Shown here: piece after piece, positions 42,542 to 63,886 of the stretch
Position numbering within the stretch: the first letter of the stretch is position 1
How the letters are laid out: each line of letters begins with the position of its first letter
Virus record (IMG/VR): IMGVR_UViG_3300032038_000027
Coordinates: 51,744 to 115,743 of that record
Strand: one strand, 5' to 3'
Length of the DNA: 64,000 bases
DNA from: a virus
Taxonomy: Duplodnaviria; Caudoviricetes
Notes under the pieces: generated by a model
The model's database searches: none
Told to the model about the DNA's origin: nothing
Seen by the model: only the letters and a program-made list of their open reading frames with translations
Program-made: the position numbers and the translations under genes

Positions 42542-43396
42542 TTAGCGCACCAAATGTAACCTATCTTTGGCAACTTGAAACCACTTTTCCTCAATTTCAA
42601 TACCGATAAAATGACGATCTAAAGCGATTGCAGCCGCGCCGGATGTTCCGCTACCCATAAAAATGTCTAAAACAATATCGCCCGGTTCACTCCATGTCTT
42701 GATCTGGTCGCTTGCAAGCTGCTCCGGGAATGGAGCAGGATGACCTTTGGTCGCTTTATCCTTATTTGTTAAATAAGTAAAGATGTTACCGTGTTGCTTA
42801 TATTGATTAACTACATGAGAACCACAATTAACTAATCCGCTGTCATTACTCTTATGGTATGTTGCTCCACCCCAAGTTTTTGTTCCGGCATATTTGCATG
42901 GTATCATAATTGGGTGGAAAGATTTTGGACGACCTTTAGAGAACACAAACATATACTCAAATTCCTGCTCATACCTACGGTGAGTAAGCGGTACATAATT
43001 TTGTTTTCTGTATATCATTGTGTCATATATGTTAAAGCCACAATCTTTAAACATTAATGCCTGTCGAAAACTTGTGCCTGTTTCTGAACCGTTGAACGTA
43101 GCGTCGGCAACTATCCATATAACGACACCGCCATTTTTTACTACGCGATATAGTTCTTTTACAATCTTTACAAAGTGTTCCCAACTCAACCGATCATTAT
43201 TAGTTCCATATTTTCTGAGATTGTCATATGGTGGAGAAGTAATCACCATGTCAACACTATTTGCCTCCATTGAAGATAAAGTTGTTAAGCAATCGTCACA
43301 GTACAGACTACAACACTCGCTAATATACTCATTAATGATTATATTACCCCCATTCTCTAATATCGTTTTAAAATATCGAATTATAAAATATACCAA
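42542..43396 (-). CDS. N4-cytosine/N6-adenine DNA methyltransferase (beta class)
   Basis: TSPPY, HPAPFP, DIFMGSGTS; true start probably near 43340 after a GGGGGT SD. Confidence 0.92.
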   Translation of the reverse strand: MVYFIIRYFKTILENGGNIIINEYISECCSLYCDDCLTTLSSMEANSVDMVITSPPYDNLRKYGTNNDRLSWEHFVKIVKELYRVVKNGGVVIWIVADATFNGSETGTSFRQALMFKDCGFNIYDTMIYRKQNYVPLTHRRYEQEFEYMFVFSKGRPKSFHPIMIPCKYAGTKTWGGATYHKSNDSGLVNCGSHVVNQYKQHGNIFTYLTNKDKATKGHPAPFPEQLASDQIKTWSEPGDIVLDIFMGSGTSGAAAIALDRHFIGIEIEEKWFQVAKDRLHLVR

Positions 43397-43568
43397 GAAA
43401 CATAGAAACGATAAACCCTATAATACTAATTCCACCACAAAATTTAGCTGTCCCAAAAATGTCTGATTTTTCTTTAAATAAAGAAATTCCACATATTAAG
43501 AAAATGAAAGCGAGCATAAAAATGCCAACTTGACTTCCAAGAAATGATTTAATGCTAACTATATTCAT
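43368..43568 (-). CDS. Small membrane protein
   Basis: Two hydrophobic segments. Confidence 0.5.
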   Translation of the reverse strand: MNIVSIKSFLGSQVGIFMLAFIFLICGISLFKEKSDIFGTAKFCGGISIIGFIVSMFLGIFYNSIF

Positions 43569-43578
43569 ACATTAACAC

Positions 43579-44118
43579 TTATTGTTCTATTCCTTTCACG
43601 CGACAGTAAACATCTGCTACGATCTCTTTGTAGCCGCCTATATAGCCCTCAATGTTTTTATATTCAACATTATAATTATCAAGTAATTGTTTGATTTCAT
43701 CACCTATCTTATCTGATTCTTCTTCTGTCTGAAATCGCCCGTTAGGATTGTATTCTTTCACTCTTGTAAGATAATAATTCATATTATCATAAGAGTTAAA
43801 TACGTCTAATACATAATTATTAAAACTTTCTTTAAGATTAGATGTTTGATTATATTGAATAGAAAGTAATAGCGGAGAATCAGTAACGATTACATTTACT
43901 TTATTGGTGCATCTTGATATTTTGAATGACTGTTTTCCAAAGATATATGCTTGGTTTTCAAATACAGCTTTATTGCCTTCCCACAATTTATCTTTTGCAA
44001 ATTCCGTTACAAGCTCCGCATCTATTCCTTGCATTTTAAGTAGCGCAAAAACATATGCTGCACCCGTACTTTTACCTGCGCCGGGTGCGCCAAATAAATT
44101 AACAATAATTGTTTTCAA
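43579..44118 (-). CDS. AAA_28/NadR-like P-loop kinase
   Basis: GAPGAGKS, TEFAK, TDSPLL, GRFQ. Confidence 0.75.
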   Translation of the reverse strand: MKTIIVNLFGAPGAGKSTGAAYVFALLKMQGIDAELVTEFAKDKLWEGNKAVFENQAYIFGKQSFKISRCTNKVNVIVTDSPLLLSIQYNQTSNLKESFNNYVLDVFNSYDNMNYYLTRVKEYNPNGRFQTEEESDKIGDEIKQLLDNYNVEYKNIEGYIGGYKEIVADVYCRVKGIEQ

Positions 44119-44128
44119 ACAATCACTC

Positions 44129-45070
44129 CTATTGGATTTTTACATTTATGTAATCAAGCACATTTTTCATTCCTAAACCACCGTCATTCCAATCTCTCAT
44201 ACAATACTCCCATAACTTCGGATGCGTTTCATGTAATCTTTGAAATCTATTAGGTTCTTTTTCAAGATGACATCCAAAGCCGCAGAAAACACAGCCCGTT
44301 CTATCACAGCCGGTCGTATATAGTTTGCCGTTTTCATCTTCCTTGATTTCGCTGTAAACAGAAGCATAGGGAATGTTGTAATTGCGGAGATATTGCAATA
44401 CGTCTTGCTCAGTCCAAAAGCTCATAGGGCGGGAAGTTGGACGTTTACTATTAAAAGCATTACAACCATACATTAACCAGTTAGACTTTCTCTGCACTGA
44501 TTCTTCTGTCATAGTTGCGATAATTGGAACTTTACCAGTTTCTTTTTCATACTGTTTGGCAGGATTCTTTTTCATCACATCACAGCATTTATCAGAAATA
44601 AGAAATGGAGCATCAACTAAATATTTATGACATTCCGAAATTTTACCACGACCATATTTATTGCCATTCCAACGAATATCTTTTAGCTTTTCAGATTTTG
44701 TAGTTCGATATTCTTGAATAAAAGCCGCTTGTTCTTTTCCTATAATGGGATAGCCATATGTTTCGATAACTTTTCTGAAATTCATCTTTGGTTTAAGTCG
44801 AATAACATTTTCTTGACTTAACGCAAATTCCCTTACTTCTGGATATTCCAATCCCGTATCGACAAATACCGCAGGAATATTTGGTCTTAATTGTCTGGCA
44901 ATATGTAATAATACTGTGCTGTCCTTACCTCCGCTAAACGAAACATAAGCATCATATTCTCTTAACCATTCTCTAATTCTGTTTGTTGTTAGACCAATCT
45001 TGACATTTAAAGGCATTGATTGAAAATACTTTAAATGCTCTGCGGTAAAACTTGAATTAGATTTTTTATT
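44129..45070 (-). CDS. PAPS-reductase-family (PP-loop) protein; native start lies on the flipped segment (predicted OFF)
   Basis: SFSGGKDS, VDTGLEY, CC, RTGCVFC. The frame is open to 45076 but closed by TAA at 45077-45079, and there is no SD-preceded start. Confidence 0.85.
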   Translation of the reverse strand, partial: NKKSNSSFTAEHLKYFQSMPLNVKIGLTTNRIREWLREYDAYVSFSGGKDSTVLLHIARQLRPNIPAVFVDTGLEYPEVREFALSQENVIRLKPKMNFRKVIETYGYPIIGKEQAAFIQEYRTTKSEKLKDIRWNGNKYGRGKISECHKYLVDAPFLISDKCCDVMKKNPAKQYEKETGKVPIIATMTEESVQRKSNWLMYGCNAFNSKRPTSRPMSFWTEQDVLQYLRNYNIPYASVYSEIKEDENGKLYTTGCDRTGCVFCGFGCHLEKEPNRFQRLHETHPKLWEYCMRDWNDGGLGMKNVLDYINVKIQ

Positions 45071-45203
45071 TAGATTTTAGTCAAATAAAATACCAATGTT
45101 TCGGTAAATTATTTAGCTGTTATCAATTAGATCATAAAGTGAAAGTTTAATAAGCAGCGAAAGTTAGGTGTTTAATAAATGGAAGAGCCAAATAAAAAAT
45201 CTA
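45058..45203. promoter_or_regulatory. Putative invertible start-codon switch A
   Basis: 14-bp perfect IR at 45058-45071/45190-45203; AGGTG-8nt-ATG GAA GAG CCA on the + strand becomes in frame with the gene after inversion. Confidence 0.8.
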
Positions 45204-45235
45204 TTTGATTGTTAAATTATCGTTCATAAATTTAT

Positions 45236-45445
45236 TTATTTCTTAATTTTTAGTTTTATCGTTTCTGGCACAACTTCGGCAAACCCAATTCCAATATCAT
45301 ATTCATCATCAGATTGACCTTCATAATCATCCACGATAATTTCTCCTATGAATTTTCTACCATCATAATTGTTAATTAAATCGCCTGAGATAGTCTTACC
45401 ATTGTCTTTTCGCTTTCCCGAAAAAATATATTTGGAATTATTCAT
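45236..45445 (-). CDS. YopX-like short protein
   Basis: FSGKRKDNGKTISGDL...EVVPET. Confidence 0.6.
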   Translation of the reverse strand: MNNSKYIFSGKRKDNGKTISGDLINNYDGRKFIGEIIVDDYEGQSDDEYDIGIGFAEVVPETIKLKIKK

Positions 45446-45447
45446 TT

Positions 45448-46125
45448 TTACCTCTTGGCATCTCCAATATCATTCACATAAAAATAAGATTGTGGCGATC
45501 TTGTTAATTTCATTTTAGGACAATCTTCACCGCTAAAATCATATCCACATACCATCATATTCTCACAATAATCAAACATATATGCGTCACATGATTTGCA
45601 AGGTCGCTTATCTTCGTCATAATTCCAATACTTAGAAAATTCTCCAAGCTCTTTTGGTTTATCATAAATAATAAGATTTGTAATGTGCCAAAGGTAAACG
45701 TCATTACGGTTGTTATATCTCATGATTTCACCAAGCGACATACAAATTCTAAGTAATGGTGTTGTAAAATCTACAAATAATCCAGAAGCATTTGGGTCTA
45801 ACCAATCTGTTCGATCACATATAAACTCGCCGATAACTTTCCCATTAAGAAAATTATCTTTGTTCCATTGGTTAGGAAACCGAGCTAACTCAATAGATGA
45901 ACCATATTTGATTTCGCCGTTTGGTAATCTGTATAATTCATCTGTATAAAGCGAAACATCTGAATTGTAATTTTTAGGTTTAGAGCAATATATATAGCAC
46001 TTGAATGGTGGCTTTATTTTTGGAATTGTTTTCTTAACTTCCTCGGTTTTCTCTCCATCAATAATTTTTGCACACAATTTTGGGTTTATATTGATTAGTA
46101 TAGCTTTACCAGAATTTTCGCTCAT
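45448..46125 (-). CDS. ASCH-domain protein
   Basis: ILININP...IIDGEKTEEV, CYIY, GKVIGEF, PQSYFYV. Confidence 0.75.
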   Translation of the reverse strand: MSENSGKAILININPKLCAKIIDGEKTEEVKKTIPKIKPPFKCYIYCSKPKNYNSDVSLYTDELYRLPNGEIKYGSSIELARFPNQWNKDNFLNGKVIGEFICDRTDWLDPNASGLFVDFTTPLLRICMSLGEIMRYNNRNDVYLWHITNLIIYDKPKELGEFSKYWNYDEDKRPCKSCDAYMFDYCENMMVCGYDFSGEDCPKMKLTRSPQSYFYVNDIGDAKR

Positions 46126-46150
46126 TTTAGAATCTCACTTTCCTTGTTAT

Positions 46151-46657
46151 TTATAGTTCAACTTTAAATAAAAGATTTTTTGCAGAATTTAAGATATCTT
46201 CATCTGTAGAAATTCTATGCCAAAAATCAGAAATACTTTCGCAAAAATGTATTTCATCCATTATTCCGACAAATGTTGATACATACCATTCGTCATTAGA
46301 ACTCGGAAACAACTGAAATATCGTATCTTTGCCATTAATAAGCGTAGGAAAATGCTTAAACATAGAAGTCAGAACACGATAAATATAATCCGGCACAGAA
46401 AGAACATCTGCATCATCACCGATATCTTCTATGATGATGTAATTATTATCAGTGCCTTGAAAATAATGTTCTACTACATAGTTCCATTTTGATTCCGGCA
46501 CACTAAAAGTATTACTACCAGAATGTTCTTTTAATTTGCTATACGTCACTTTAAATTCTCGGATTAGTCGCAAATTACATTCAAATTTAATATCATTGAT
46601 TTTGAATTTCATTGAATCTAATTCTTTACTGCTGCTGAGATTCATCATTACCTCCAT
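46151..46657 (-). CDS. Hypothetical protein
   Basis: 168-aa ORF. Confidence 0.5.
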   Translation of the reverse strand: MEVMMNLSSSKELDSMKFKINDIKFECNLRLIREFKVTYSKLKEHSGSNTFSVPESKWNYVVEHYFQGTDNNYIIIEDIGDDADVLSVPDYIYRVLTSMFKHFPTLINGKDTIFQLFPSSNDEWYVSTFVGIMDEIHFCESISDFWHRISTDEDILNSAKNLLFKVEL

Positions 46658-46994
46658 CGGGTTCGTTCAGCAGCTTGCCGTGCAGATCATAAATATCAAG
46701 ATGATCTCTTGATAATAAATCCTCGAATCCTTCATATTTTTCGCTCTTATATGTCGGAACTGGCGTTACATCCGTCCACGATTTGTTCTTTTTAACAATA
46801 ACAATATAATTCATATACACATATACATAATAATCATTATTGTTTAAGACGACCTCTGTTAAGATAAAGTTCTCAGTATCGGGCGCAAGATCAGCACGAA
46901 TCAAACTTTCATTAGCGAATCTTTCATCAACCAAAAGTTCGCACACCTTGTTATAAATACTATTAATGTCATAATCTACTTGAATATTTACCAT
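46626..46994 (-). CDS. Hypothetical protein
   Basis: 122-aa ORF. Confidence 0.5.
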   Translation of the reverse strand: MVNIQVDYDINSIYNKVCELLVDERFANESLIRADLAPDTENFILTEVVLNNNDYYVYVYMNYIVIVKKNKSWTDVTPVPTYKSEKYEGFEDLLSRDHLDIYDLHGKLLNEPDGGNDESQQQ

Positions 46995-47009
46995 TTCAAT
47001 AAATCCACC

Positions 47010-47201
47010 TCAATTCTTTAATGCGGTTAAATAGCTATCATTGGCGAAAAATTCCATATCAGAATTTTCAAATTGAATTACTGCATGATGTTTTGAATAT
47101 CTAATAAAGACACATTTAGATACCAATCCATTTCGATAGGGAGATGAATATAGGCATTGATCTCCGCTTTTAAATTTATTAGGATAATGGATTCTCGACA
47201 T
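47010..47201 (-). CDS. Hypothetical protein
   Basis: 63 aa; similar to the C-terminus of 42082-42471. Confidence 0.55.
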   Translation of the reverse strand: MSRIHYPNKFKSGDQCLYSSPYRNGLVSKCVFIRYSKHHAVIQFENSDMEFFANDSYLTALKN

Positions 47202-47344
47202 TAACCTTTCCTCTTTTTATTCACGATGATAGCAATAATTCCAACAATAAGTTGCAAGATATTCACGACGAGAATTGCGAATGAAAAGTTGCCCAAATAT
47301 GCTTCATTCGCAACATTTCGCAAAAATTGCAAAAATTCCTCCAT
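47201..47344 (-). CDS. Small single-TM protein (47 aa, absent from the ORF track)
   Basis: MEEFLQFLRNVANEAYLGNFSFAILVVNILQLIVGIIAIIVNKKRKG; fills the gap exactly, with a GGGTGA SD. Confidence 0.65.
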   Translation of the reverse strand: MEEFLQFLRNVANEAYLGNFSFAILVVNILQLIVGIIAIIVNKKRKG

Positions 47345-47545
47345 TTAATCACCCTGCTTTACCTGTCGTATTCTGACTATTTCAATTTCTTTAGGTTTAT
47401 ATCTCTTTTTTAATTTCCTTAAAACCTTGCGTCTTGCTCCGGCTTCAGTAAATGCGCGGACGTAAACAGTCCTTTTCTGCGGACGATAAACACCGATATA
47501 ATACAGCATGGTTACAACGGCTCTTACTTTCCATTTCTTAATCAT
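47345..47545 (-). CDS. Basic hypothetical protein
   Basis: 66-aa ORF. Confidence 0.5.
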   Translation of the reverse strand: MIKKWKVRAVVTMLYYIGVYRPQKRTVYVRAFTEAGARRKVLRKLKKRYKPKEIEIVRIRQVKQGD

Positions 47546-47548
47546 AGA

Positions 47549-47827
47549 TCATTCCCATGCAAATAATTGTCCGCATCTTGGACAACGATTATCCCTTGTT
47601 AAACAATTAGCAGCTCGCCCATCTCTAATTCTTCTGCCACAAGCAGGGCAATATCTTTTTAAAGCACTTCCATTCGGAGCAGTAGGAGTATTTTTCGCAA
47701 TCACTTCATCAATGGCTTGAACCAAATTATATGGTAAAGGACATAAAGATTCTTTGGATTTTGATTCTAAGATAACTTTCACATCTTTTAAGCAATCAAG
47801 AAGTTCATAGTCATTCATATATATCAC
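47549..47827 (-). CDS. Zn-ribbon protein
   Basis: CPACG...CPRCGQ. Confidence 0.6.
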   Translation of the reverse strand: MIYMNDYELLDCLKDVKVILESKSKESLCPLPYNLVQAIDEVIAKNTPTAPNGSALKRYCPACGRRIRDGRAANCLTRDNRCPRCGQLFAWE

Positions 47828-48237
47828 TCCTTTTTAAAGGATTTAATTGATACGAATAATCGTTTAATACGTTTTTTAGTCTTTTTAATAAACTGGCGAT
47901 AATTCCTATTCCTATATTCTTTGCGACTATATGTGATGAATCCTTTCTGAGATAACTCAAAATATCTATCAAATGTAGATTTCTTCATCCAACGAAATCT
48001 TTTGGAATTATCTTCAGAAACACATCCAAACTCCCACGCAACATAACGCATAATCCACGCAAAGAATCTTTCAAAAATATTAAGATAAACCCTCATATCA
48101 ACAATATATGTACCTTTAGGAATAAGTTCATCGCACTCAGGTATAAATACCTGTCTTGTGCAAATATATGTGTCATAACAAAACGGACTTTTAATCACAT
48201 AATAAGTTTCGCCACTTGTACTATTTGGATTTATCAT
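47824..48237 (-). CDS. Hypothetical protein
   Basis: 137-aa ORF. Confidence 0.5.
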   Translation of the reverse strand: MINPNSTSGETYYVIKSPFCYDTYICTRQVFIPECDELIPKGTYIVDMRVYLNIFERFFAWIMRYVAWEFGCVSEDNSKRFRWMKKSTFDRYFELSQKGFITYSRKEYRNRNYRQFIKKTKKRIKRLFVSIKSFKKE

Positions 48238-48248
48238 TTTGATCTCCT

Positions 48249-49058
48249 TTAATCGGATTTCTTTAATACTGTATTTGCTGCTTTAGATTTCTTTAATATT
48301 GTATTTGCTGCTTCAGATATTCTTCTTAATGCTATATCATCATATTCAAGATTGTTCTCGATGCCGATGAAATAACGATTTGTATTCACGCACGCTACGC
48401 CAGTTGAACCGCTGCCCATACAATTATCAAGAACTACGTCGCCCGGATTCGTATATGTTTTAATCAAATACTCTAATAAGGCAACTGGCTTTTGAGTTGG
48501 ATGAAATCTACCTCCATCTCTCGGATAACTTAATATACTTAGCGGATTTCGCGCACCGTCCAAAGATTCAGTATAAGCTACTCCCCTATTGCCGTAATTA
48601 TCAGACAATCTACCGTTTTTAGTCTTTTTATACGGCGAGGAATACCATAACTGCTTATTATATATAGGTTTCTTTTTGTAAAAAATCGCAATTTCTTCAT
48701 GGGATTTAAGTGGCTTTACATTGGCGTTTAGAAAATCTGAGCCGCGCTGCTTATCCCAAATCAGATTGTATCGCCATAGCTTAGTATTAGATAACATGAG
48801 ATTTGCCATGAATAAACCATCACAAAATAAAGCGATACAACCGTGTTCTTTAATAATTCTTGTGTAATGCTCCCATAATTTATCGAGCGGAATAACTATG
48901 TCCCATTTATTATGGGTTGTACCATAAGGCAGATCACATAAAATCATGTCTATGGATTCATCTGGTATTGTTTGCATTACATTTAAACAGTCACCAAAAT
49001 GTAATTCATAGTTATACGGGGGGGGTGTTGAAGCTGAATTGTTAAATATTTTTCTCAC
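48249..49058 (-). CDS. N6-adenine/N4-cytosine DNA methyltransferase (beta class), in-frame C8 tract
   Basis: CDLPY, HPTQKP, DNCMGSGSTG; poly-C at 49018-49025. Confidence 0.92.
   Translation of the reverse strand: MRKIFNNSASTPPPYNYELHFGDCLNVMQTIPDESIDMILCDLPYGTTHNKWDIVIPLDKLWEHYTRIIKEHGCIALFCDGLFMANLMLSNTKLWRYNLIWDKQRGSDFLNANVKPLKSHEEIAIFYKKKPIYNKQLWYSSPYKKTKNGRLSDNYGNRGVAYTESLDGARNPLSILSYPRDGGRFHPTQKPVALLEYLIKTYTNPGDVVLDNCMGSGSTGVACVNTNRYFIGIENNLEYDDIALRRISEAANTILKKSKAANTVLKKSD
48256..48313. repeat. 30-bp-period tandem duplication at the MTase 3' end
   Basis: GATTTCTTTAATA(C/T)TGTATTTGCTGCTT twice; encodes AANT(I/V)LKKS twice. Confidence 0.85.
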
Positions 49059-49750
49059 CTTGCTCTTGATTTGTTGCTAAAATACGCTCTTTGGCGATTT
49101 CAAAAGAGTGATCGTCTAATTCAATACCGAAGAATTTTCTGCCAGTTTCCAATGCGGCGATTCCCGTAGTTCCCGAACCCATACAAGGGTCAAAGATCAA
49201 ATCACCAACATTACTATTGTCTAATAGTAATTCTTTACATAAATCGAGATTCTTTTGAGTAGGATGAACCTTATTCCTGCCACACGGATATTCAAAAACT
49301 GTATTCTTACAATTAGCATTAAAAACTGCACCACGTTTTTTAAACCATATAGCGTTTTCAATGCCGGATAAGTAAATGTATTTGCCGTTCATTGGAGAAG
49401 GATTAGTTTTCTTCCAAATTAATTGGCGCACCGTACCTTTATGTTTATCTTGTAAATCTTGAAAGAAATTTTTAATTTCGCTTAATTGATGCTGACCACA
49501 AAATATAATAATTGTGCCAGAAGTAACACGATTGATTTCTTTAAGAAAATCTATTAGACAAAAAGTAGTAATATCTGCATATTCTTTGTTGAGATTTCTC
49601 AAACCGTTATCAGCACGATTGATCTCACCATACGGAATATCTGTTAATGTAACATTTACTGAATCAGATTCCATTTGTTGCAAAACTGTCATGCAATCTG
49701 CATTTAATAATTTTGCGGGGGGGGGTTCTACTGGCTATTGAATTAATCAT
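49042..49750 (-). CDS. Beta-class DNA methyltransferase, frameshifted at a C9 tract (phase-variable, predicted OFF)
   Basis: TDIPY, HPTQK, DPCMGSGTTG. The SD-preceded ATG at 49750 joins the main frame only with C8 or C11 at 49717-49725. Confidence 0.85.
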
Positions 49751-49781
49751 AATCATTCCTATCTTTCAATACAGTAATTAG

Positions 49782-50120
49782 TTATATAAGTTCAATGCCA
49801 CATTTGGGGCAAAATTTCGCTGCCACTAAATCGAATTGTCCCTCAACCTTTGGAGCGGTTGATGTGAATAATAAGCAATTACACTTCGGGCAGAACATCT
49901 TGATAGTTTCGCCATATTTGGAAATTCGCTTTACTGCAATATTATCATTCAATACAGCGGTGTTGATCTTCCTGCGAATATTAAGCATATTGGTGTGGGT
50001 TGTATTGGTTATACGGGTATTGCATTTGATACAATACACACCTGCACGTTTGCCTTCCATTTTTGCATAAACATCTTGACTACCGCAGGATGGACAAGTA
50101 TAAACTATCTCTTTAGCCAT
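49782..50120 (-). CDS. Double Zn-ribbon protein
   Basis: Four CxxC motifs. Confidence 0.6.
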   Translation of the reverse strand: MAKEIVYTCPSCGSQDVYAKMEGKRAGVYCIKCNTRITNTTHTNMLNIRRKINTAVLNDNIAVKRISKYGETIKMFCPKCNCLLFTSTAPKVEGQFDLVAAKFCPKCGIELI

Positions 50121-54809: not shown

Positions 54810-54847
54810 TTTATTGAAAATAAGTCCGTTTTTCTCCAACGGTTCTT

Positions 54848-54876
54848 ATTTTAGCAGAATATTTTCTACTTGTCAA
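54848..54876 (-). promoter_or_regulatory. Leftward promoter (face-to-face with the rightward one)
   Basis: TTGACA-17 bp-TAAAAT with extended TG. Confidence 0.75.
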
Positions 54877-54917
54877 GTCCTACAGAAGAAAATATCACTA
54901 AATTGAGGTGCGAAATT

Positions 54918-55271
54918 ATGGAAAACATTCTTTACGCTCGTATTAAACAGCTATGTGACGAACGAGGAATAAGCATAAAGAAACTTGAATCTATGCTTGG
55001 TTTTGGTGCATCTTCAATTCAAAAATGGAAAGATTCTACATCTCCATCTATAGATAAAGTAAAACGTGTTGCGACGTTTTTCAATGTTTCTATTGATTAT
55101 CTAACCGGTAGGACAGACATAAGAGAAATAGATTATTTTAAAGAACCTAATGTCGTCACATTCCAACGTGCGCGAGAAAAGATGGATTCAGATACCGAAG
55201 AGCGCATGATGGCTACTTTGCGTGCGGCATTTGGTAATGATTACTTTCCGCAGGAGGATAATAACGAATAA
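54918..55271 (+). CDS. XRE-family HTH repressor (ImmR/CI-like)
   Basis: RIKQLCDERGISIKKLE...SPSIDKV...VSIDYLTG; GAGGTG SD before ATG at 54918. Confidence 0.9.
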   Translation: MENILYARIKQLCDERGISIKKLESMLGFGASSIQKWKDSTSPSIDKVKRVATFFNVSIDYLTGRTDIREIDYFKEPNVVTFQRAREKMDSDTEERMMATLRAAFGNDYFPQEDNNE

Positions 55272-55895: not shown

Positions 55896-55898
55896 GTC

Positions 55899-55940
55899 GC
55901 ATGGTAATGTATATTAAGATATACACTACCATGCTTTTTT
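55899..55940 (+). terminator. Intrinsic terminator between immA-like gene and groEL
   Basis: GCATGGTA-a-TGTATAT-taag-ATATACA-c-TACCATGC followed by T6. Confidence 0.85.
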
Positions 55941-55946
55941 ATTTAA

Positions 55947-57566
55947 TTACTGCGCGGTAGGAATTTGTACAGGCTCTTTTTCATCTGCCACAAGAGTTTC
56001 AGTTGTCAGAATCATACCTGCAACAGACATAGCATTTTCAAGTGCCTTAATAGTCACCTTTGCAGGGTCGATAATGCCACTTTCGAGCATATCAACCATT
56101 TCGCCGCTCGTAACATCGAATCCCATATTGGGGTTGTTTCTTTCAACATTATCGACTTTATATCTAAGAGCGCAACCGGATGGCGATAATCCTGCGTTAT
56201 TGACAATGTTGTTAAAAGGCTCTGAAATTGCAAAAGAAACTGCATCAAAATATTTCTGATCTTCTGATTCAGAATACTTAGCAGCAAGCGGAACAATAGC
56301 GTTCATAAGAGCAATACCGCCGCCCGGAACAATGCCAAACTCGATAGCTGCTCTTGTCGCTGACAGTGCATCTTCAAGACGAAGTTTCTTATCCTTCAAC
56401 TCGATCTCTGTATTTGCACCAACGCGAATAACTGCAACACCATTTGTCATCTTTGCAAGACGTTCCTTGAACTGCTTGCGATCATATTCATTAGTCGCTG
56501 AGTCACAAGCGCAACGAATAGAATTTGCTCTTTCCTCGATATTCTTTGTATCGCCATGACCGCCGATAATAGTAGTGCTTTCCTTTTCAACCTTAACCTT
56601 GTCGGCACTACCAAGATCATCAATAGTGACATCTTTAATTGTATATCCTAACTTAGATGTGAAACACTTAGCGCCAGTTACAACAGCAATATCCTCTAAC
56701 CATGCTTCTCTGTTTTCGCCAAACTTAGGAGGCTTTACGCACACAACATTGATAATGCCTTTCATCTTATTAGTAATAAGAGTACCCGCAACCTCATTAC
56801 TAATTTCATCAGAAATAATTACTAAACTTCTGCCACGCTTTACCGTGCTTTCAAGTAGCGGAAGGATATCAGGAACAGAATTGATTCGAATATCAGAAAC
56901 GAGAATAAGAGGATTATTGTATTCCGCAACCATTTTGTCGGGGTCTGTTACCATATAAGGTGAAATATAGCCCTTGTCAAACTGAATACCCTTTACGATC
57001 TCATGCTTAGTTTCGTTTGTCTGAGAATCATCAACAGTAATCACCAGATCGTTACCAAGTTCACTAATAATATTCGCAATAATTTCGCCAAACTCAGGGT
57101 CACGAGAAGAAATTGTGGCTACCTTTTCAATATCATCACTACCACGCACAGGAATAGCATATGCTCTAATGATAGAGATTACATCTTCAACAACCTTCTC
57201 CATATTTCTCTTAACGATAACGGGATTCTCGCCAGATGCAACTAATTTCATTCCCTGCTCAACAAGAGCTTGTGCAAGCACAATAGCGGTAGTTGTGCCA
57301 TCGCCGGAATCCGTATTTGTTTGTGAAGAAATTTCACTTACGAGCTTTGCACCCATATTTTCAAATTCATCCGGCAAACTAATCTCTTTGGCAATAGTTA
57401 CGCCATCATTAGTGATTAGCGGAAATGTATAAGAGCGATCAAGGGCGACAAATCTTCCCTTTGCGCCAAGTGTTGACTTTACGCAATTTGCAACAATATT
57501 GATTCCCTTAATAAGCGCATTTTTAGCTTCAGCACCCATAAGAATTTTCTTAGCCATTGTCATCAT
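55947..57566 (-). CDS. groEL: Chaperonin GroEL
   Basis: ITNDGVTIAKEI, GDGTTT, FDKGYISPY, GIVPGGG, GIIDPAKV. Confidence 0.97.
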   Translation of the reverse strand: MMTMAKKILMGAEAKNALIKGINIVANCVKSTLGAKGRFVALDRSYTFPLITNDGVTIAKEISLPDEFENMGAKLVSEISSQTNTDSGDGTTTAIVLAQALVEQGMKLVASGENPVIVKRNMEKVVEDVISIIRAYAIPVRGSDDIEKVATISSRDPEFGEIIANIISELGNDLVITVDDSQTNETKHEIVKGIQFDKGYISPYMVTDPDKMVAEYNNPLILVSDIRINSVPDILPLLESTVKRGRSLVIISDEISNEVAGTLITNKMKGIINVVCVKPPKFGENREAWLEDIAVVTGAKCFTSKLGYTIKDVTIDDLGSADKVKVEKESTTIIGGHGDTKNIEERANSIRCACDSATNEYDRKQFKERLAKMTNGVAVIRVGANTEIELKDKKLRLEDALSATRAAIEFGIVPGGGIALMNAIVPLAAKYSESEDQKYFDAVSFAISEPFNNIVNNAGLSPSGCALRYKVDNVERNNPNMGFDVTSGEMVDMLESGIIDPAKVTIKALENAMSVAGMILTTETLVADEKEPVQIPTAQ

Positions 57567-57840
57567 CCTCCGTATTCAGCTTTAAAATAATATCCTTATT
57601 CTTTGCAATATAATACTCTTGTCCATCATACTCAATTCTTAGAGTTTCACGAAAATCAAAAAGCACAATATCGCCAATTTCAAGATTATGATGTTTCTGC
57701 TTATTAACAACTTTCGCAATACAGCGTGTGTCCTTATTGTTAGTAAGAATCAAACTATTTGAGCCATCATGTTCAATTTCACAAGGTAAAAGCAGTAGAT
57801 AATTATTAAACATTTCGCCCTGTTCAATCTTATTATTCAT
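57550..57840 (-). CDS. groES: Divergent co-chaperonin GroES-like
   Basis: 96 aa directly upstream of groEL; IGDIVLF and YDGQEYYI...DII. Confidence 0.65.
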   Translation of the reverse strand: MNNKIEQGEMFNNYLLLLPCEIEHDGSNSLILTNNKDTRCIAKVVNKQKHHNLEIGDIVLFDFRETLRIEYDGQEYYIAKNKDIILKLNTEDDDNG

Positions 57841-57860
57841 CTTTCAATCCCTCTCTTTTA

Positions 57861-58295
57861 TTATTCTGCATCAGTCACAAAACGATAAGGCTTCTTTTCT
57901 ACAATAGGTAAAGCCTTAGTAATGTAATATACAGCGATGTTTTCAACAGCACCTTCAATTTGCTGCTCATTGATTCTATGATCGTACATAATCACATTAG
58001 ATTCAATTTGCATTGACTTTGCTGTAGGCTTTGCAATCGTAATTGTGCCGCCATTTGTGAATCGAATTACATAATAGAGATTACTATTTTTAGCTGTATA
58101 TTCTTGAATTTCATCAATTAACGAAGTAGAAATCTTATTGTAATATTCACTTAATTCATTACAAAGAGCGATTGCCTTTTCACGATCTGCCATAAAGAAC
58201 AGAATTTGATAGTTATGATACATCTGAAGTCTTTTAAGGATTCTATCAATCAAAAAAGTCTGATTATTAATCATTTGTTTCACCTCTCTTCCCAC
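57861..58295 (-). CDS. Hypothetical protein
   Basis: IRFTNGGTITI motif. Confidence 0.5.
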   Translation of the reverse strand: MGREVKQMINNQTFLIDRILKRLQMYHNYQILFFMADREKAIALCNELSEYYNKISTSLIDEIQEYTAKNSNLYYVIRFTNGGTITIAKPTAKSMQIESNVIMYDHRINEQQIEGAVENIAVYYITKALPIVEKKPYRFVTDAE

Positions 58296-59356
58296 GGAAA
58301 ATTATTTGTTCCAAAATGTCCAAATTTAGCTGTTTCATAGAATTTAACATGACCATCATTAAGATGTAAGTCCTTAATCATTCTTTCTGGGGTACATTCT
58401 TCAAGATATTGATATTTATTGATACCAAGAATTGCATTATTTCTGTCACTAATTGCAATATTTTTATCGCTTTGAATATCAATAGATACAGGCTCGGCAA
58501 TACCAATAGCATAAGATAGTTGAACTTGCACCCAATTCAAATCTTCATTACGGTTTAAAACATCAATGGCGATCTGTCGTGCCTTATAAGCTGCGGAACG
58601 ATCAACCTTAGTCGCATCTTTACCGGAGAAAGCACCGCCACCAATCGGCGCAAATGAATGATAATTGTCTACACATAGCTTTCTGCCAGTTAATCCCGCA
58701 TCGCCATCAAAACCACCAATCAGAAATTTGCCAGTAGGATTGATATGAAAATTCTCAATAGAGATATAAAATTGATGACATAAACTACGGCAAAAATCTA
58801 TTAGAATCTGATCTGTTTCTTTGCGTTCAACTTCTGTATTTTGATATGAGATAATAAAATCTTTAATGTAGCGCAATTTGTTATTTTCATCATAACAACC
58901 GACAATCTGTGCTTTACCATCTGGTAAAAATCTTGAATCTGATCGTCGCAAGGAATCATAATACATTGAAAGTATCTGAAGAATATTCATAGCAAGTGGA
59001 ATATTATTTTGCGTATCTCTACAAGCAAATCCGAACATCATTCCTTGATCTCCTGCACCGCCGATATCCACACCTTGTGCAATATCGGGAGATTGTTTAC
59101 CAATGTTATTGATTACAGCATATTCTCTTGTATAACCCACATCTTGTAAGACTTTTCTTACAACTTCTTGGATATTAACATTAGCGGTTGATGTAACTTC
59201 GCCAGTTACGAAAATCACACCTTTGCCGCCAACTACTTCGATTCCGCAGCGACTATTGCGATCTTTCGCCAAATAAGCGTCAAGAATAGCATCGCTAATC
59301 TGATCGCAAACTTTATCCGGGTGTCCTCTAAAAACTATCTCATTACTATATAGCAT
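58280..59356 (-). CDS. metK: S-adenosylmethionine synthetase
   Basis: GHPDKVCDQISD, GAGDQG, PDGKAQ, GLTGRK, GGGAFSGKD.TKVDRS. Confidence 0.97.
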   Translation of the reverse strand: MLYSNEIVFRGHPDKVCDQISDAILDAYLAKDRNSRCGIEVVGGKGVIFVTGEVTSTANVNIQEVVRKVLQDVGYTREYAVINNIGKQSPDIAQGVDIGGAGDQGMMFGFACRDTQNNIPLAMNILQILSMYYDSLRRSDSRFLPDGKAQIVGCYDENNKLRYIKDFIISYQNTEVERKETDQILIDFCRSLCHQFYISIENFHINPTGKFLIGGFDGDAGLTGRKLCVDNYHSFAPIGGGAFSGKDATKVDRSAAYKARQIAIDVLNRNEDLNWVQVQLSYAIGIAEPVSIDIQSDKNIAISDRNNAILGINKYQYLEECTPERMIKDLHLNDGHVKFYETAKFGHFGTNNFPWEER

Positions 59357-60275
59357 TTGGTTTTATATCCTTTTCAATATATAATTTGTATTTTCGTATT
59401 ACATCTTCAAAAAATCTATTCCATTCGCTATCTTTAAGATCATATATGCCTTTTGACTTTAATAAATCCGAGCGAAGAAAACTCCTTCTCAAAGAATCAA
59501 CCATATGGGATTTACATATAGGATATACTTTTGCAAAATTTCTGAACACTATCCATGCTTCGTTCCGCAAAACTACATCTCCCCAAGCATCATCATAAAT
59601 AAATTTCTTGTGTTTCTCTTTAATTTCAGGGAAATATTTACTTATGATAACGCTTAACGGTGCGCCAATATCTTCAACCGGAGGTCTAAAAGATTGCGAG
59701 AAGAAATCACGGTGTTTAAGCCATAGATCGTTATCTTTAATAAAACATTGAAATTTCGCACGATCACCAAGCCAACTAACAGAAAACGATGGTTTTATAC
59801 CTTTTAATTCAAATGGCTTTTCAAGTTTTGGTTCACCATAAATACGATATGAATAAATTTCACAGATCATAGGCTCTAAAAAGTATTTTTCATATACTTC
59901 GCGCAAATTATCGGACACAGTTACAATATCAAATGTAACAGGAAAATTTAACTTACCATACGGCACGACTTGATAATCTACTCTATCGAGATATTCACAA
60001 TCATCCATACTATCACGGTAAAATCTAACGATTATTGAAAAATCGCTTGTTTCACATTGTCGCCATTCTCGCCAACCGTCTTTTCGTTTCTCGACCTTAA
60101 TAGGATAGGATTTGTCGCGCATTAAGTTTATATATGTCAGATAAGTCTTATCGGTATAAGGCTCTATTTTTATGATCTTTTCGGACGGGAAATATTTCGC
60201 AGCTTCTTCTTTAGTATCAGCATATATCTTTGGCTGATAATCTCTACCATCAAGGGTTAATATCCAACGGTTCAT
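59346..60275 (-). CDS. Hypothetical protein
   Basis: Long ORF; likely start MNRW at 60275 after an AGGAG SD. Confidence 0.55.
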   Translation of the reverse strand: MNRWILTLDGRDYQPKIYADTKEEAAKYFPSEKIIKIEPYTDKTYLTYINLMRDKSYPIKVEKRKDGWREWRQCETSDFSIIVRFYRDSMDDCEYLDRVDYQVVPYGKLNFPVTFDIVTVSDNLREVYEKYFLEPMICEIYSYRIYGEPKLEKPFELKGIKPSFSVSWLGDRAKFQCFIKDNDLWLKHRDFFSQSFRPPVEDIGAPLSVIISKYFPEIKEKHKKFIYDDAWGDVVLRNEAWIVFRNFAKVYPICKSHMVDSLRRSFLRSDLLKSKGIYDLKDSEWNRFFEDVIRKYKLYIEKDIKPNAI

Positions 60276-60633
60276 TTTCGCTCCTATTATAATATGGCAC
60301 AAGACAAGGAGTATACGTTTTACAATCAACATGATTAGAATGTAAAAGCGCATTAATTCGCAACCCGGTTGCAACCCAATCCTTATTCAAAACTAATGTG
60401 ATCTTGCTCTGATTGCTGAAAAATATATGTCCTTGTTCATGTCTATGAACAAATTTCACATTAGGGATTTGGCGACAACATTCGCGCAATTCTTTAATAC
60501 TTGCAAATACCACCAATGCTTGAAAGCGAGGATAAGTGCAACAATAAAATATAATCTCACCCATTGTATCGAAAGAATACTTTTTATGAATCGGATTAAG
60601 ATATGTATTACCCAAAGAAGCCTCCGAACGCAA
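60250..60633 (-). CDS. Hypothetical protein
   Basis: IFFSNQSKITL...GLRIN; start uncertain. Confidence 0.45.
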   Translation of the reverse strand: MRSEASLGNTYLNPIHKKYSFDTMGEIIFYCCTYPRFQALVVFASIKELRECCRQIPNVKFVHRHEQGHIFFSNQSKITLVLNKDWVATGLRINALLHSNHVDCKTYTPCLVPYYNRSENEPLDINP

Positions 60634-60766
60634 GCAGCGCTACCTGTATGCCAACACTAATCAACGCTCCCCAAAAATTATTCTTCGTTTCTTTACCGTG
60701 TAGATATGCGTTTGCACATAAACTTAATCCCATAAGAACAATCCAAATAATTTGGCACACACCCAT
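60608..60766 (-). CDS. Small two-TM protein (52 aa, absent from the ORF track)
   Basis: MGVCQIIWIVLMGLSLCANAYLHGKETKNNFWGALISVGIQVALLAFGGFFG after a GAGGTGA SD. Confidence 0.7.
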   Translation of the reverse strand: MGVCQIIWIVLMGLSLCANAYLHGKETKNNFWGALISVGIQVALLAFGGFFG

Positions 60767-60767
60767 G

Positions 60768-61166
60768 TTAATCACCTCTGCTTTCAAACATCACTTGATG
60801 ATGCTCCTTAATTTGTGGAAAATCGGACTTTAACATCGCTTTTAATTCGGCAACTAATCCCTTTAAATATGCCTTTGTTAAGCCGCTAAAAACATATTCA
60901 CATATATATTTCTTATCCGCAGAACCGCCAAACATGATACACAGATCAAGTTTATTACCCCAATCAATAACTCCATCTATGACTTTTTTGTGTTCATTAT
61001 ATATTTTAGCGGTTGCCTCATTAAGTGCTTCGGTCAATAATTCTGATTTATCGAGATCATTATAATATACTGTATCGTTTGCCTCATTAAGTGCTTCTGA
61101 TTTATCGGGAACATTATTTGAATCGACAATATCCGATTTAAGTATAAACATTCCTTTAACCATCAT
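60768..61166 (-). CDS. Hypothetical protein with internal duplication
   Basis: DKSE and EALNEA are each repeated. Confidence 0.5.
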   Translation of the reverse strand: MMVKGMFILKSDIVDSNNVPDKSEALNEANDTVYYNDLDKSELLTEALNEATAKIYNEHKKVIDGVIDWGNKLDLCIMFGGSADKKYICEYVFSGLTKAYLKGLVAELKAMLKSDFPQIKEHHQVMFESRGD

Positions 61167-62100
61167 TTCTTATCAGACCTTTCAAAATATGTTTGATAAC
61201 TTCAATACACCAACCATCGCCGCACATATTATAAATATGACTATCTGCAAAATCCATTTTATACCACTCAGGTATCGTTTGTAATTTACGATATTCATGC
61301 GGTGTGAGTTTGCGACATCTGCCGTGATCGTATACTTTCTTTTGCAAATTCCCGCCACGACAAGCTGTCAATGTTGGTGATTTATAATTAGGATTGTTGA
61401 CACGTTTTAAGATATCGTGTCCATTAATATGTAATATAGCGCAAACTTTTTTGCCATCATAATAATCATAGCTTTGCGTATAATAATATTTTTCATCTAC
61501 ATCTGAATCCATAATATCGCGCAAAACTAATGAACAATTATCCGGCAACTTATTTATAGGAATGTTTGTCCAATAATTTCTCGCCCGATCTTGTGCGGAA
61601 AATAAATTTGCGTTTATTAAAATGGGTTCAACTCCTAATATTTTGCTCATTTCATGAATATCATCTTTGCGATTACTATCCACGTTTTCTACGAGAAAAT
61701 AAACCATAGAATTATTATTTATTTGAATCCATTTAAGAATCTTAGCGCATGAGTAGAATAAACTTGATGAACCTTTTAATCCATTATTATATTCTGATCT
61801 ACCCATTGTAACTTTAGATAATGATCGACACGGACTGCCGAACATCACCAAATCAATTCTTGGTAAACTTTGTAACATATTATCAGTAATTTTCGTTACA
61901 TCTCCAAGCTGTATGGTGTTCGGAAAATTATCTTGTGTGCATTTTATCGCAACTTTATCAATTTCACTCGCATAATAATTATTGATCTTAAACCCTAATT
62001 CGGTTAATGCAATTTGACCGCAACTCATTCCATCACACAAACTAAGCACATTTAATCCTTCATCGCCAAATAAAGTGTTGTTTTTATCTTTTAATTCTAT
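61156..62100 (-). CDS. C5-cytosine DNA methyltransferase (switch B, predicted ON)
   Basis: VLSLCDG, FGSPC, LVENV, QDRAR, GDGW. Frame extends to ATA at 62100 after a GGTGA SD; GTG at 62049 is an alternative start. Confidence 0.9.
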   Translation of the reverse strand: MELKDKNNTLFGDEGLNVLSLCDGMSCGQIALTELGFKINNYYASEIDKVAIKCTQDNFPNTIQLGDVTKITDNMLQSLPRIDLVMFGSPCRSLSKVTMGRSEYNNGLKGSSSLFYSCAKILKWIQINNNSMVYFLVENVDSNRKDDIHEMSKILGVEPILINANLFSAQDRARNYWTNIPINKLPDNCSLVLRDIMDSDVDEKYYYTQSYDYYDGKKVCAILHINGHDILKRVNNPNYKSPTLTACRGGNLQKKVYDHGRCRKLTPHEYRKLQTIPEWYKMDFADSHIYNMCGDGWCIEVIKHILKGLIRNDG

Positions 62101-62220
62101 TTTAAGTCACCAAACTTTCGAATGTTAATTTCATATTATATGATGGTTAATTGTTGATAATTCAATATAACTCCGCAATATAAGGGCTTTCTTAACAAAA
62201 TTCGCACAATAAAAACAACA
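62076..62220. promoter_or_regulatory. Putative invertible start-codon switch B
   Basis: 12-bp perfect IR at 62076-62087/62209-62220. The current orientation supplies SD+ATA; the flipped one gives an in-frame TAA (62193-62195). Confidence 0.7.
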
Positions 62221-62225
62221 TTTGC

Positions 62226-63752
62226 TTAATGAAACATATTTTTCATTAAATGCGCAATTACCTCTACAGTCCAACCGTTGCCTAAACATTTATAAGCCTG
62301 TGAATCACTAATCACGCTAAAATCATACCATTCCGGCACAGTCTGTAATCTCTTACATTCACTCACCGTTAATTTTCTGATTATGTAAAAACCATCTGCT
62401 AATTTAATAGGATAGGTTTTACCTTTAATTTCAATCATACCGTTCTCTACGGTATGAACAACATAAGTTTTACCATCTGCTGACGATACAGCTTTAATTG
62501 GTTTATCGTTTTCAAACTTAACTGGAATAGCATAAAGTCCAGTATTAGAACCAATCCCACCACTATTGGATTGTTGCGTTACTGATTTACCATTTATACT
62601 ATAAATTCTGTTGCCTTGCCCACCGTTTCCTATTTCACCGATTTTATGAGATGTAAGTAATTTATCATGTTCAATATTTTCATTTACTGGTTCAATTACA
62701 CCTTCATAACCGCGACCATGAATAATATTTTCTTCAAGATTTCTTCCATTACCGATTTTATAATATGTAGCTCTTAAACAACTTGATTTATCTTTACATC
62801 TCGTAGTAACCGGCTCAGCAACCATCCTGCGTGCAGCGACAGATGTTAAAGCAGCAGACTTATTATCTGTTTTAGCTTCATATCTGCGGTCATACGTTCC
62901 ATCAGATTGTTTCTTTCTGCCGTATACTTGTTCTTGTACAGCTACAGGTTCGGCAACACCACTTGCTCCGTAGGTAGAAGTATATTTGCAAATATTCGCA
63001 ATACTTGTTTGCTGATATTGTGCTTTAATTGTTTGAGATTTGCCATCCTTAGTAGTATTCACAGGTTCAAATGTCATTTGACCTTGATTTTTCTTAAAAT
63101 ATTCTCGCGTAGTAGTTCTCCCGATACTGCTAATAATTGCGCGAGATTTATCACGATTAACTACGCCATCAAGAACATCTCGTAATAATATTCCCCTATC
63201 TTCCGGTTGCGGAATATCAGCTTTTCTATATGTGCCATCATCATTTCTGATTCCGCACCAATAATATCTATTGCGATTTTGTGCCGATACTAAAGCGGAA
63301 TTTATTAAAATAGGTTCAAATCCGAATGTATTTGAAATACTTTCGTAAATAGCTTTTGCCATTGACTTATTGTTTTCATAAATAAAGTATTTAGGTTTAG
63401 CTTCTTTCAATGCTCTAACATATTGACTGAATAATTCCCAACCTAAACCACTTGCTTCAGTTTCGCGGCGATCATTCTTTTGAGCGATTGACCAATATGT
63501 GCAAGGGCTGCCGCCAATTAAGAAATCAATATTTTCATATTGAGTGAAATCCGCGTCAAATACATCACCATTTTGCTCGATCTCAGGGAAATTATGCTGT
63601 GTAACAGCGATCGCATACTTGTCGATCTCATAAGCGGAATATTTTGCAACGTTAATGCCGCTGCTCATGAACGCCAACATTCCGCAAGCCATGCCGTCAA
63701 ATAGGCTCAGAACTGAAACTCCGTCATTTGCGGATAAATCAGTGTTTTTATT
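62226..63752 (-). CDS. C5-cytosine DNA methyltransferase with extended multi-segment variable region (switch C, predicted OFF)
   Basis: VLSLFDGM, GGSPC, IYENN, QNRNR, LGNGW. The frame is closed by TAA at 63753-63755 with no SD-supported start before motif I. Confidence 0.9.
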   Translation of the reverse strand, partial: NKNTDLSANDGVSVLSLFDGMACGMLAFMSSGINVAKYSAYEIDKYAIAVTQHNFPEIEQNGDVFDADFTQYENIDFLIGGSPCTYWSIAQKNDRRETEASGLGWELFSQYVRALKEAKPKYFIYENNKSMAKAIYESISNTFGFEPILINSALVSAQNRNRYYWCGIRNDDGTYRKADIPQPEDRGILLRDVLDGVVNRDKSRAIISSIGRTTTREYFKKNQGQMTFEPVNTTKDGKSQTIKAQYQQTSIANICKYTSTYGASGVAEPVAVQEQVYGRKKQSDGTYDRRYEAKTDNKSAALTSVAARRMVAEPVTTRCKDKSSCLRATYYKIGNGRNLEENIIHGRGYEGVIEPVNENIEHDKLLTSHKIGEIGNGGQGNRIYSINGKSVTQQSNSGGIGSNTGLYAIPVKFENDKPIKAVSSADGKTYVVHTVENGMIEIKGKTYPIKLADGFYIIRKLTVSECKRLQTVPEWYDFSVISDSQAYKCLGNGWTVEVIAHLMKNMFH

Positions 63753-63886
63753 TTAAATTCCGGTACTTTAAATGCCCAATAATTGAGAATTTATAATTCG
63801 CTGTTTATCTTAGATATTTTAACAACGACATAAAAACATATAGAAAGGTGGGTGTTTCACAATAGATTTAGCCAATAAAAACACTG
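63740..63886. promoter_or_regulatory. Putative invertible start-codon switch C
   Basis: 13-bp perfect IR at 63740-63752/63874-63886; GAAAGGTGGGTG-7nt-ATA GAT TTA GCC on the + strand becomes in frame after inversion. Confidence 0.78.

Follow-up and report, generated by a model that had tools for sequence, protein, structure and literature searches.

Phage orphan methyltransferases are usually read as fixed anti-restriction armor, and the locus described here raises the question of whether such armor may instead be adjustable. The window under study, i.e., the whole stretch of 64,000 nucleotides that was analyzed, comprises the last 64 kb of the single 115,743-bp IMG/VR record IMGVR_UViG_3300032038_000027 (34% GC; completeness estimate 74%) and represents the right half of a phage genome of ~116 kb. 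Within 21 kb of it, all on the minus strand, lie three N6/N4 and two C5 DNA methyltransferases, a 3′-phosphoadenosine-5′-phosphosulfate (PAPS) reductase-like gene, and metK coding for an S-adenosylmethionine (SAM) synthetase. The best explanation of the locus as a whole is, with good probability, that this modification module is wired with two kinds of heritable and reversible switch: short invertible cassettes that would move a start codon, and homopolymer tracts that would shift a reading frame. Comparison between assemblies (JGI, ENA, Logan, and one isolate genome) provided the evidence for switching and shows both switch types in alternative natural states predicted to turn the translation of modification genes on or off.

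Putative invertible cassettes and the two orientations of cassette A

Three cassettes were identified directly 5′ of the PAPS-reductase-like gene (cassette A) and of the C5 methyltransferases B (cassette B) and C (cassette C); their inverted repeats measure 17, 15, and 16 nt, and the whole elements 152, 151, and 153 bp, respectively (Table 1). The repeat core TTTTTAT/ATAAAAA is common to the three, and the pattern TTTTTAT-N112-142-ATAAAAA matched only these cassettes genome-wide (reversed control, 0 matches); the core pattern is informative at the scale of a phage genome only, with a 2.5-Mb Ruminococcus genome giving 20 matches vs. 37 for the control (14-base core). Beside one repeat, each cassette carries GAAAG-3-GGTG followed after ~6-8 nt by ATG (A) or ATA (B and C) and three codons in frame into the repeat; in B this motif end faces the gene, and in A and C it faces the opposite way. 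In all three cassettes the repeat nearest the gene has the reading xAT-AAA-AAx with the frame open on into the enzyme, and Shine-Dalgarno (SD) sites are in use in the phage genome.

Cassette A lies in the OFF orientation in the window, where AGGTG (45166-45170) and ATG (45179-45181) are read from the plus strand, in the direction opposite to the gene. The N-terminus of the PAPS-reductase-like family is conserved and starts ~20-22 residues upstream of the annotated ATG; the window retains these N-terminal codons, closed by TAA 45077-45079 and devoid of a start codon in the present orientation. In-silico flipping of the cassette gave a 317-aa protein whose first 22 residues equal those of P0009 bar one position; among the matching residues are four whose codons sit, in the window, on the other strand at the cassette end distal to the gene. 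P0009 (Logan, L111, ON) and P0010 (JGI, L113, OFF) are 98% identical with colinear flanks, and the inner ~120 bp of L111 and L113 align only after reverse-complementing one copy, the window then aligning with L113. Further near-identical ON/OFF pairs were P0406 (321 aa)/P0405 (297 aa) and P0001/window. Other ON copies were identified in L007, L011, L112, and L284, the last in a prophage carried by Ruminococcus sp. YE282, an isolate cultured from the rumen (contig NZ_FMUV01000013.1), and other OFF copies in L005 and L117; every OFF copy has the hidden SD-ATG intact and in frame after flipping as well as an intact downstream open reading frame (ORF). The assembly k-mers (k119 to k141 in contig names) greatly exceed the 15-17 nt of the repeats, and the orientations are therefore taken to be real. 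At the sequence level, the ON orientation supplies the SD site, start codon, and N-terminus and the OFF orientation gives an in-frame stop; the comparison shows that cassette A switches between orientations, one of which is predicted to supply the start codon. P0131 and P0138, considered as a second ON/OFF pair, were rejected as they differ solely in the start choice of the gene caller.

A model in which the cassettes invert a promoter was set aside, as sigma-70-like sites occur at chance level (96 found vs. 95 expected), and is also disfavored by the conserved inner element being an SD site with an in-frame start codon. Rfam and ARAGORN gave no RNA match in the cassettes. In several relatives (L007:3740-3810, L117:1280-1330, and L284:1280-1310), a hairpin and T-run lie immediately beyond the distal repeat of cassette A, and a conserved sequence containing TTGAC comes next; together they may constitute a terminator plus a fixed promoter, so that transcription would be constant with the cassette acting at translation. 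A cassette-motif scan of IMG/VR gave 0 matches and exact-junction scans of IMG/VR gave none; six cassette-motif matches in JGI metagenomes were treated as chance as none had the flanking repeat pair. The large relatives G004, G005, and G007-G011 had no cassette above the control level.

Homopolymer tracts in the N6/N4 methyltransferase genes

The two poly-C tracts (C8 and C9; Table 1) are the only G/C runs of at least six nucleotides in the whole 115,743-bp genome, and ~0.13 runs of at least eight would be expected by chance at 34% GC (arithmetic). Both are situated ~ten codons into adjacent paralogous methyltransferases, just ahead of a conserved "DC" strand. In methyltransferase A, C8 is in frame from GTG 49058 (ON). 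Translation of methyltransferase B′ from AGGA-6-ATG at 49750 would run into C9 and end at a stop after ~30 codons (OFF); with C8 in place of C9, the frame would run on into the methyltransferase. This in-frame reading was found in P0372 (232 aa), which belongs to the same 90% cluster as B′ of the window and opens with the exact C8 version. The comparison thereby shows a natural in-frame allele of the C9 tract, and with it switching of the tract.

The same behavior was displayed by more distant relatives. In a 75% ortholog, P0244 reads ..FGRGGY.. from G8 (DNA in L291) and P0243 starts MVGGGY and needs one more G, which implies G9; elsewhere, over 223 residues, the two are 100% identical. An 81% ortholog of methyltransferase A in L118 has G8 at the same N-terminal site but out of frame, and L003 carries an unrelated Dam-like gene at the same locus with an out-of-frame G9. 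As the position of the tract is kept, be it poly-C or poly-G, and frame-toggling alleles are common, the tracts bear the signature of contingency loci. L291 and L292 were also considered as a tract-length pair and rejected, the difference being ATG to ATA. The ENA re-assembly is identical to the window at the C9 tract, the ENA contig ERZ27256903, which matches the window at 100% identity and may stem from the same reads, is uninformative on variation, and tract-flank scans of IMG/VR gave no match.

In the related 151-kb phage L057, six G8-G9 runs within 3 kb (5100-8170) distribute the coding sequences of a C5 methyltransferase and of a second PAPS-reductase-like gene over several frames, representing either an extreme use of contingency tracts or homopolymer sequencing error.

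Cassettes upstream of the C5 methyltransferases

Cassettes B and C match A in repeat core, span, inner motif, and codon phase across the repeat, and their function as switches is inferred from this homology. Cassette B is in an ON-like orientation, its inner motif and GGTG-6-ATA directed at the gene, and a flip would place TAA in frame, as read by hand; in cassette C, GGTG-7-ATA (63851-63864) lies on the plus strand away from the gene (OFF-like orientation). The C5-B frame extends back to ATA 62100-62098 inside cassette B, and its cluster mates P0399 and P0396 (>90% identical) are called with a start (ATG or TTG) two codons ahead of the residues that the repeat encodes, so that translation reads through these residues from a position that is cassette interior in the window. 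The first ATG of C5-C (63692) falls inside SAM-binding motif I, conserved coding continues to TAA 63753-63755 with no canonical start, and the N-termini of the family include a VLSLFDG strand; a CTG at 63710 has GGAG 8 nt upstream. Among 20 IMG/VR relatives of C5-C, no cassette was found upstream.

ATA or ATT was observed as the sole start behind a good SD site in several methyltransferase genes of the group (L199:1301-1320; L292; window 62098-62100 and 63862-63864), and the ATG of L291 is replaced by ATA in L292 (about 590-605). As a conjecture, these codons may provide deliberately weak initiation for methyltransferases. A tRNA-like element of ~140 nt was also observed just upstream of cassette C (window 63893-64000 and beyond; whole in L004:2135-2274), with a perfect 7-8 bp acceptor stem, D-arm, and T-arm but a folding z-score of only -2.1, and it was not called by ARAGORN or Rfam. 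Its ends are conserved, and its middle is wholly different and 34 nt longer in L114 and L115.

Candidate invertases

No serine recombinase is encoded in the genome. Two tyrosine recombinases are candidate invertases, namely the integrase-type enzyme of the window (Table 1) and a Xer-like protein of 350 aa (G000:C1:29947-30999) encoded outside the window in the structural module. The Xer-like gene is conserved, with counterparts at 33-59% identity in large related phages, whether or not these carry cassettes, as well as in YE282. A host enzyme is a further possible invertase.

Proposed mechanism and alternative explanations

In the proposed mechanism, the first type of switch would be a partial-intergenic inverton of ~150 bp with one repeat within the first codons of the gene, the invertible piece carrying an SD site, a start codon, and approximately three codons beside one repeat. 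In one orientation the gene would gain a ribosome-binding site (RBS), a start, and the conserved N-terminus, and in the other an in-frame stop would abut the repeat with no start left; a tyrosine recombinase presumably flips the cassettes. The second type would consist of poly-C or poly-G runs of 8-9 bases ~ten codons into N6/N4 genes, at which replication slippage would toggle the frame. The predicted state of this genome is PAPS-reductase-like gene OFF, methyltransferase A ON, B′ OFF, C5-B ON, and C5-C OFF. The phage population would be a mixture of DNA-modification patterns supplied by its own SAM synthetase, sister phages would probably mark their DNA differently, and some progeny would survive whichever restriction-modification (RM) system or modification-dependent nuclease the next host has. 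We infer frequent reversible switching within a lineage, independence of the five switches, and a benefit through protection of phage DNA; hedging between RM and type IV restriction is plausible by analogy with the T2 agt precedent discussed below.

In its fullest form, the proposal holds that five independent switches (three start-codon invertons and two tracts) yield virions with up to 32 patterns as a bet-hedge against RM or modification-dependent nucleases, with the start-codon inverton as a new wiring. This form is put forward tentatively, being possible rather than probable. Several observations weigh against the proposed mechanism as a whole. No relative had cassette B in the opposite orientation, and cassette C had the same orientation in 3/3 assemblies, which comprise two distinct sequences (the window and the ENA assemblies L114/L115, which are identical to each other there). 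C5-B has its own AAGGA-6-GTG start at 62049, present in either orientation, and C5-C in L114/L115 has GGAG-8-TTG, so that translation of both may not depend on the cassette; the start codon within cassette B, as within C, is ATA, which is a poor one. Methyltransferase A was seen only in frame within its own 90% cluster, where short gene calls are uninformative since identical DNA was called as 232 and 269 aa. DNA modification by the PAPS-reductase-like protein is putative, no link joins either recombinase to the cassettes (relatives without them have the Xer-like gene as a core gene), and all evidence for switching comes from comparing assemblies. Given the unflipped cassettes B and C, the start proper to C5-B, the ATA starts, and a role by association for the PAPS-reductase-like protein, 32 states are an upper bound. 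The five binary switches put forward in the first-pass annotation were accordingly retained for cassette A (both orientations), the C9 tract (in-frame allele), and the G8/G9 forms of its ortholog, and were left as the weaker part for B and C, neither seen flipped and the former with its own GTG.

The same own starts, ATA codons, and single orientation of cassette C would favor an explanation in which only cassette A and the poly-C tracts switch, B and C being relics or a promoter/5′-untranslated region element and the C5 genes being constitutive from GTG 62049 and, behind GGAG-8, CTG 63710; a sigma-70-like site within cassette B also faces the gene. Such a restriction is somewhat doubtful, as the codon phase across the repeat is that of cassette A with frames open for 17-20 codons, P0399 and P0396 are translated through the repeat-encoded residues, B and C are opposite in orientation relative to their genes within one genome, and promoter-like sites are at chance level in the region overall. 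A different question is whom the switches serve, and they might vary the host epigenome in a lysogen (a phage-borne phasevarion) or limit the cost or toxicity of methylation rather than protect phage DNA. The integrase by a tRNA gene and the XRE/ImmA pair point to a temperate phage, a cultured Ruminococcus has the cassette in a prophage, and prophage methyltransferases shape host methylomes in Bacteroides (PMC10333322). Taken in place of phage-DNA protection this role is considered unlikely, since the module lies among early/replication-type genes on the lytic strand together with metK, which fits bulk modification during replication, and five separate enzymes exceed the usual regulatory phasevarion; a lysogen role is nevertheless equally compatible with the data, and the two uses are not exclusive.

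The switch-bearing genes might also be accessory genes in decay, in which frameshifted or start-less copies are being lost and inversions between short repeats happen by rare accident. In this genome, three of the five genes with a switch are OFF, and the six G8-G9 tracts of L057 break two genes, but decay is very unlikely, as it would have to leave the downstream ORFs intact in every OFF copy, ON and OFF copies recurring in independent lineages at 98% identity, and homopolymers at the same site that are poly-C in one lineage and poly-G in another. It would equally have to account for the conservation of cassette span, repeat core, SD-start position, and codon phase across genes of only 57-75% identity. 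Sequencing or assembly artifacts, i.e., miscalled homopolymer lengths and mis-oriented short segments, are hardly credible: homopolymers are error-prone on some platforms and the ENA contig agreeing with the window may share its reads, but an assembler cannot invent an orientation with 15-17 nt repeats far below k-mers of k119 to k141, the alternative states recur across JGI, ENA, Logan, and the isolate genome, and in-frame and out-of-frame alleles each give the predicted proteins. The wiring of the module with two kinds of reversible switch remains the preferred explanation.

Comparison with known phase-variable systems

The flgB and cwpV switches of Clostridioides difficile are flipped by the tyrosine recombinase RecV. 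The cassettes resemble such short switches of Clostridia and Bacteroides, invertible promoters among them, in the ~150 bp between short inverted repeats, the position directly 5′ of a gene, the ON/OFF output, the Firmicutes host range, and a tyrosine recombinase as candidate invertase. They differ in residing in a phage genome as three sister copies, in having one coding repeat, in moving an RBS, start, and first codons rather than a promoter or terminator, and in targeting DNA-modification genes. The phage Mu G segment and P1 C segment span 3-4 kb and exchange tail-fiber C-termini by means of the serine invertases Gin and Cin; they share with the present cassettes the use of phage-encoded invertible DNA for bet-hedging, whereas the phage described here has no serine recombinase and its targets are modification genes. 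"Partial intergenic invertons" have already been described (Chanin et al., bioRxiv 10.1101/2023.03.11.532203). Site-specific inversion also changes the methylome of a clonal population in the epigenetic invertons of type I RM systems, where hsdS is shuffled by PsrA/CreX (PMC7672463); those swap target-recognition domains and alter specificity, whereas the cassettes would toggle whole enzymes by moving the start codon.

Phase-variable mod/methyltransferase genes governed by simple sequence repeats are known in Haemophilus, Neisseria, Helicobacter, and Moraxella (PMC4209511, PMC6902483). They share with the present tracts a homopolymer in the 5′ coding region of a methyltransferase and in-frame/out-of-frame alleles among close relatives, but are chromosomal type III/type I mod genes that regulate host genes, compared with two adjacent phage-borne orphan N6/N4 paralogs, each with a tract, whose presumed benefit is phage-DNA protection. 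Closer in function is the homopolymer contingency locus of T2/T4 agt, an experimental precedent for such a trade-off: the modification shields the DNA from McrA/BC yet is itself what TgvAB targets (bioRxiv 10.1101/2025.10.21.683753). In both cases a slippage tract in a phage gene permits reversible loss of function, and agt toggling lets a population survive opposite restriction specificities; here, the G/C runs of 8-9 occur in methyltransferases of an AT-rich phage of anaerobes, are combined with invertons, and are known from sequence alone. Poly-G tracts have also been cited for Campylobacter phages (Sorensen et al. 2021, cited in PMC12823448). Invertons, repeat-driven phase-variable methyltransferases, and phage poly-G tracts are thus each known already. 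Full-text literature searches gave no report of phage-borne invertons controlling orphan modification genes, of an inverton with an RBS and start codon as cargo and one repeat inside the coding sequence, or of several such invertons combined with slippage tracts in one phage.

Adjustable armor would explain silent-looking prophage methyltransferases, methylome differences among near-identical phages, and how phages cope when hosts attack unmodified as well as modified DNA. As a design, the inverton is compact and easily searched, and it is overlooked by gene callers, which report a shorter protein. The cassette in the prophage of the cultured isolate YE282 makes the idea directly testable.

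Gene content and hosts

Genes were called with Pfam, PHROGs, and NCBIfam using Pfam gathering scores and NCBIfam curated cut-offs (Table 1). The Pfam and NCBIfam calls agree with the five DNA methyltransferases, PAPS-reductase-like gene, and metK that the first-pass annotation had placed within ~21 kb, with all five methyltransferases above Pfam gathering scores. Its statement that no cognate restriction enzyme is evident also held, no nuclease family having been identified among the neighboring ORFs by Pfam, PHROGs, or NCBIfam; seven of these ORFs were unannotated in every library, so that the negative is absence of evidence. Its count of six candidate modification genes stood for the five methyltransferases and was loosened for the sixth, as the PAPS-reductase-like protein scored below every NCBIfam cut-off including the CysH/DndC-type (best 36-56 bits vs. 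154-745) and passed with the Pfam superfamily domain alone. This protein is best filed as PP-loop/PAPS-reductase-like, with a putative role in DNA modification through guilt by association.

Table 1. Positions of the modification genes, switches, and other features in the window.
Feature	Position	Strand	Details
DGR-type (diversity-generating retroelement) reverse transcriptase	7694-8887		
Integrase-type tyrosine recombinase	10051-11205	minus	adjoins tRNA-Cys
N6/N4 DNA methyltransferase (SPPY motif)	42542-43396	minus	Pfam N6_N4_Mtase E = 3e-43
PAPS-reductase-like (PP-loop) gene	44129-45076	minus	annotated ATG 45016; Pfam PAPS_reduct E = 2.5e-21
Cassette A	45055-45206		repeats 45055-45071/45190-45206
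N6/N4 methyltransferase A (DLPY motif)	48249-49058	minus	GTG start; Pfam E = 4e-31
Poly-C tract of 8	49018-49025	minus (G8 on plus)	codes TPPP, ~ten codons into methyltransferase A
N6/N4 methyltransferase B′ (DIPY motif)	49042-49756	minus	longest intact ORF from ATG 49692; Pfam E = 6e-26
Poly-C tract of 9	49717-49725	minus (G9 on plus)	putative slippage switch of methyltransferase B′
metK, SAM synthetase	58280-59356	minus	three Pfam domains and NCBIfam TIGR01034
C5 methyltransferase B	61156-62100	minus	SD-GTG start 62049; Pfam DNA_methylase E = 4e-27
Cassette B	62073-62223		repeats 62073-62087/62209-62223
Multi-domain C5 methyltransferase C	62226-63752	minus	first ATG 63692; Pfam DNA_methylase E = 1e-36
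Cassette C	63737-63889		repeats 63737-63752/63874-63889

The N6/N4 methyltransferase at 42542-43396 has no switch, with neither a homopolymer nor a cassette at the gene. Motif IV reads SPPY, DLPY, and DIPY in the three N6/N4 enzymes and two of these are non-canonical, the tract-bearing methyltransferases having DLPY/DIPY in place of the canonical (D/N/S)PPY; DIPY was retained in 11/11 homologs whose sequences were read (thousands detected) and is presumably functional. The metK product scored 324.3 bits against TIGR01034 (equivalog cut-off 309.4) with all three Pfam domains and, as judged from these scores, is a genuine methionine adenosyltransferase. The other genes between these include a CCA-adding enzyme, an RlaP-like nucleotidyltransferase, an ADP-ribosylglycohydrolase (ARH), GroEL, and several unannotated ORFs.

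metK also adjoins methyltransferases in L114, L115, and L118. The last, a complete 144-kb relative, encodes at 2371-3662 a multi-domain C5 methyltransferase, an N6/N4 methyltransferase with G8, a short MetK-like gene, and a further methyltransferase whose G8 is in frame; since L118 keeps the same neighborhood, the link between methyltransferase, SAM synthetase, and homopolymer is a trait of the phage group. The INPHARED phage collection gave no megablast match to the 22-kb region, and no syntenic loci were retrieved with the central ARH gene as anchor.

Two of the methyltransferases vary in length by repeated units. Between the catalytic halves of methyltransferase C (62500-63100), repeated blocks resembling target-recognition domains vary in number (P0122, P0123, and P0124-P0148), with variants of 400, 439, and 488 aa near-identical elsewhere and relatives of up to 844 aa. 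This block variation fits a multispecific C5 enzyme that would gain and lose specificity modules and thereby add to the variation of the methylome. Methyltransferase A has a 30-nt tandem repeat of 2.3 copies at its 3′ end (48256-48324); the cluster mate P0388 is exactly 10 residues shorter there, from which the copy number of the repeat differs between strains.

Relatives of the phage genes were found in prophages and contigs of metagenome-assembled genomes, mainly of Ruminococcus, Oscillospiraceae, Lachnospiraceae, and other Clostridia, and the hosts are likely gut or rumen Clostridia. A repressor-type XRE/ImmA pair is encoded in the window, and this pair together with the integrase beside the tRNA-Cys gene suggests that the phage may be temperate. 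Near the reverse transcriptase, integrase, and tRNA-Cys region (7694-8887 and 10051-11611), 11-nt direct repeats at 11279-11301 and 11710-11733 were observed that may be att-related.

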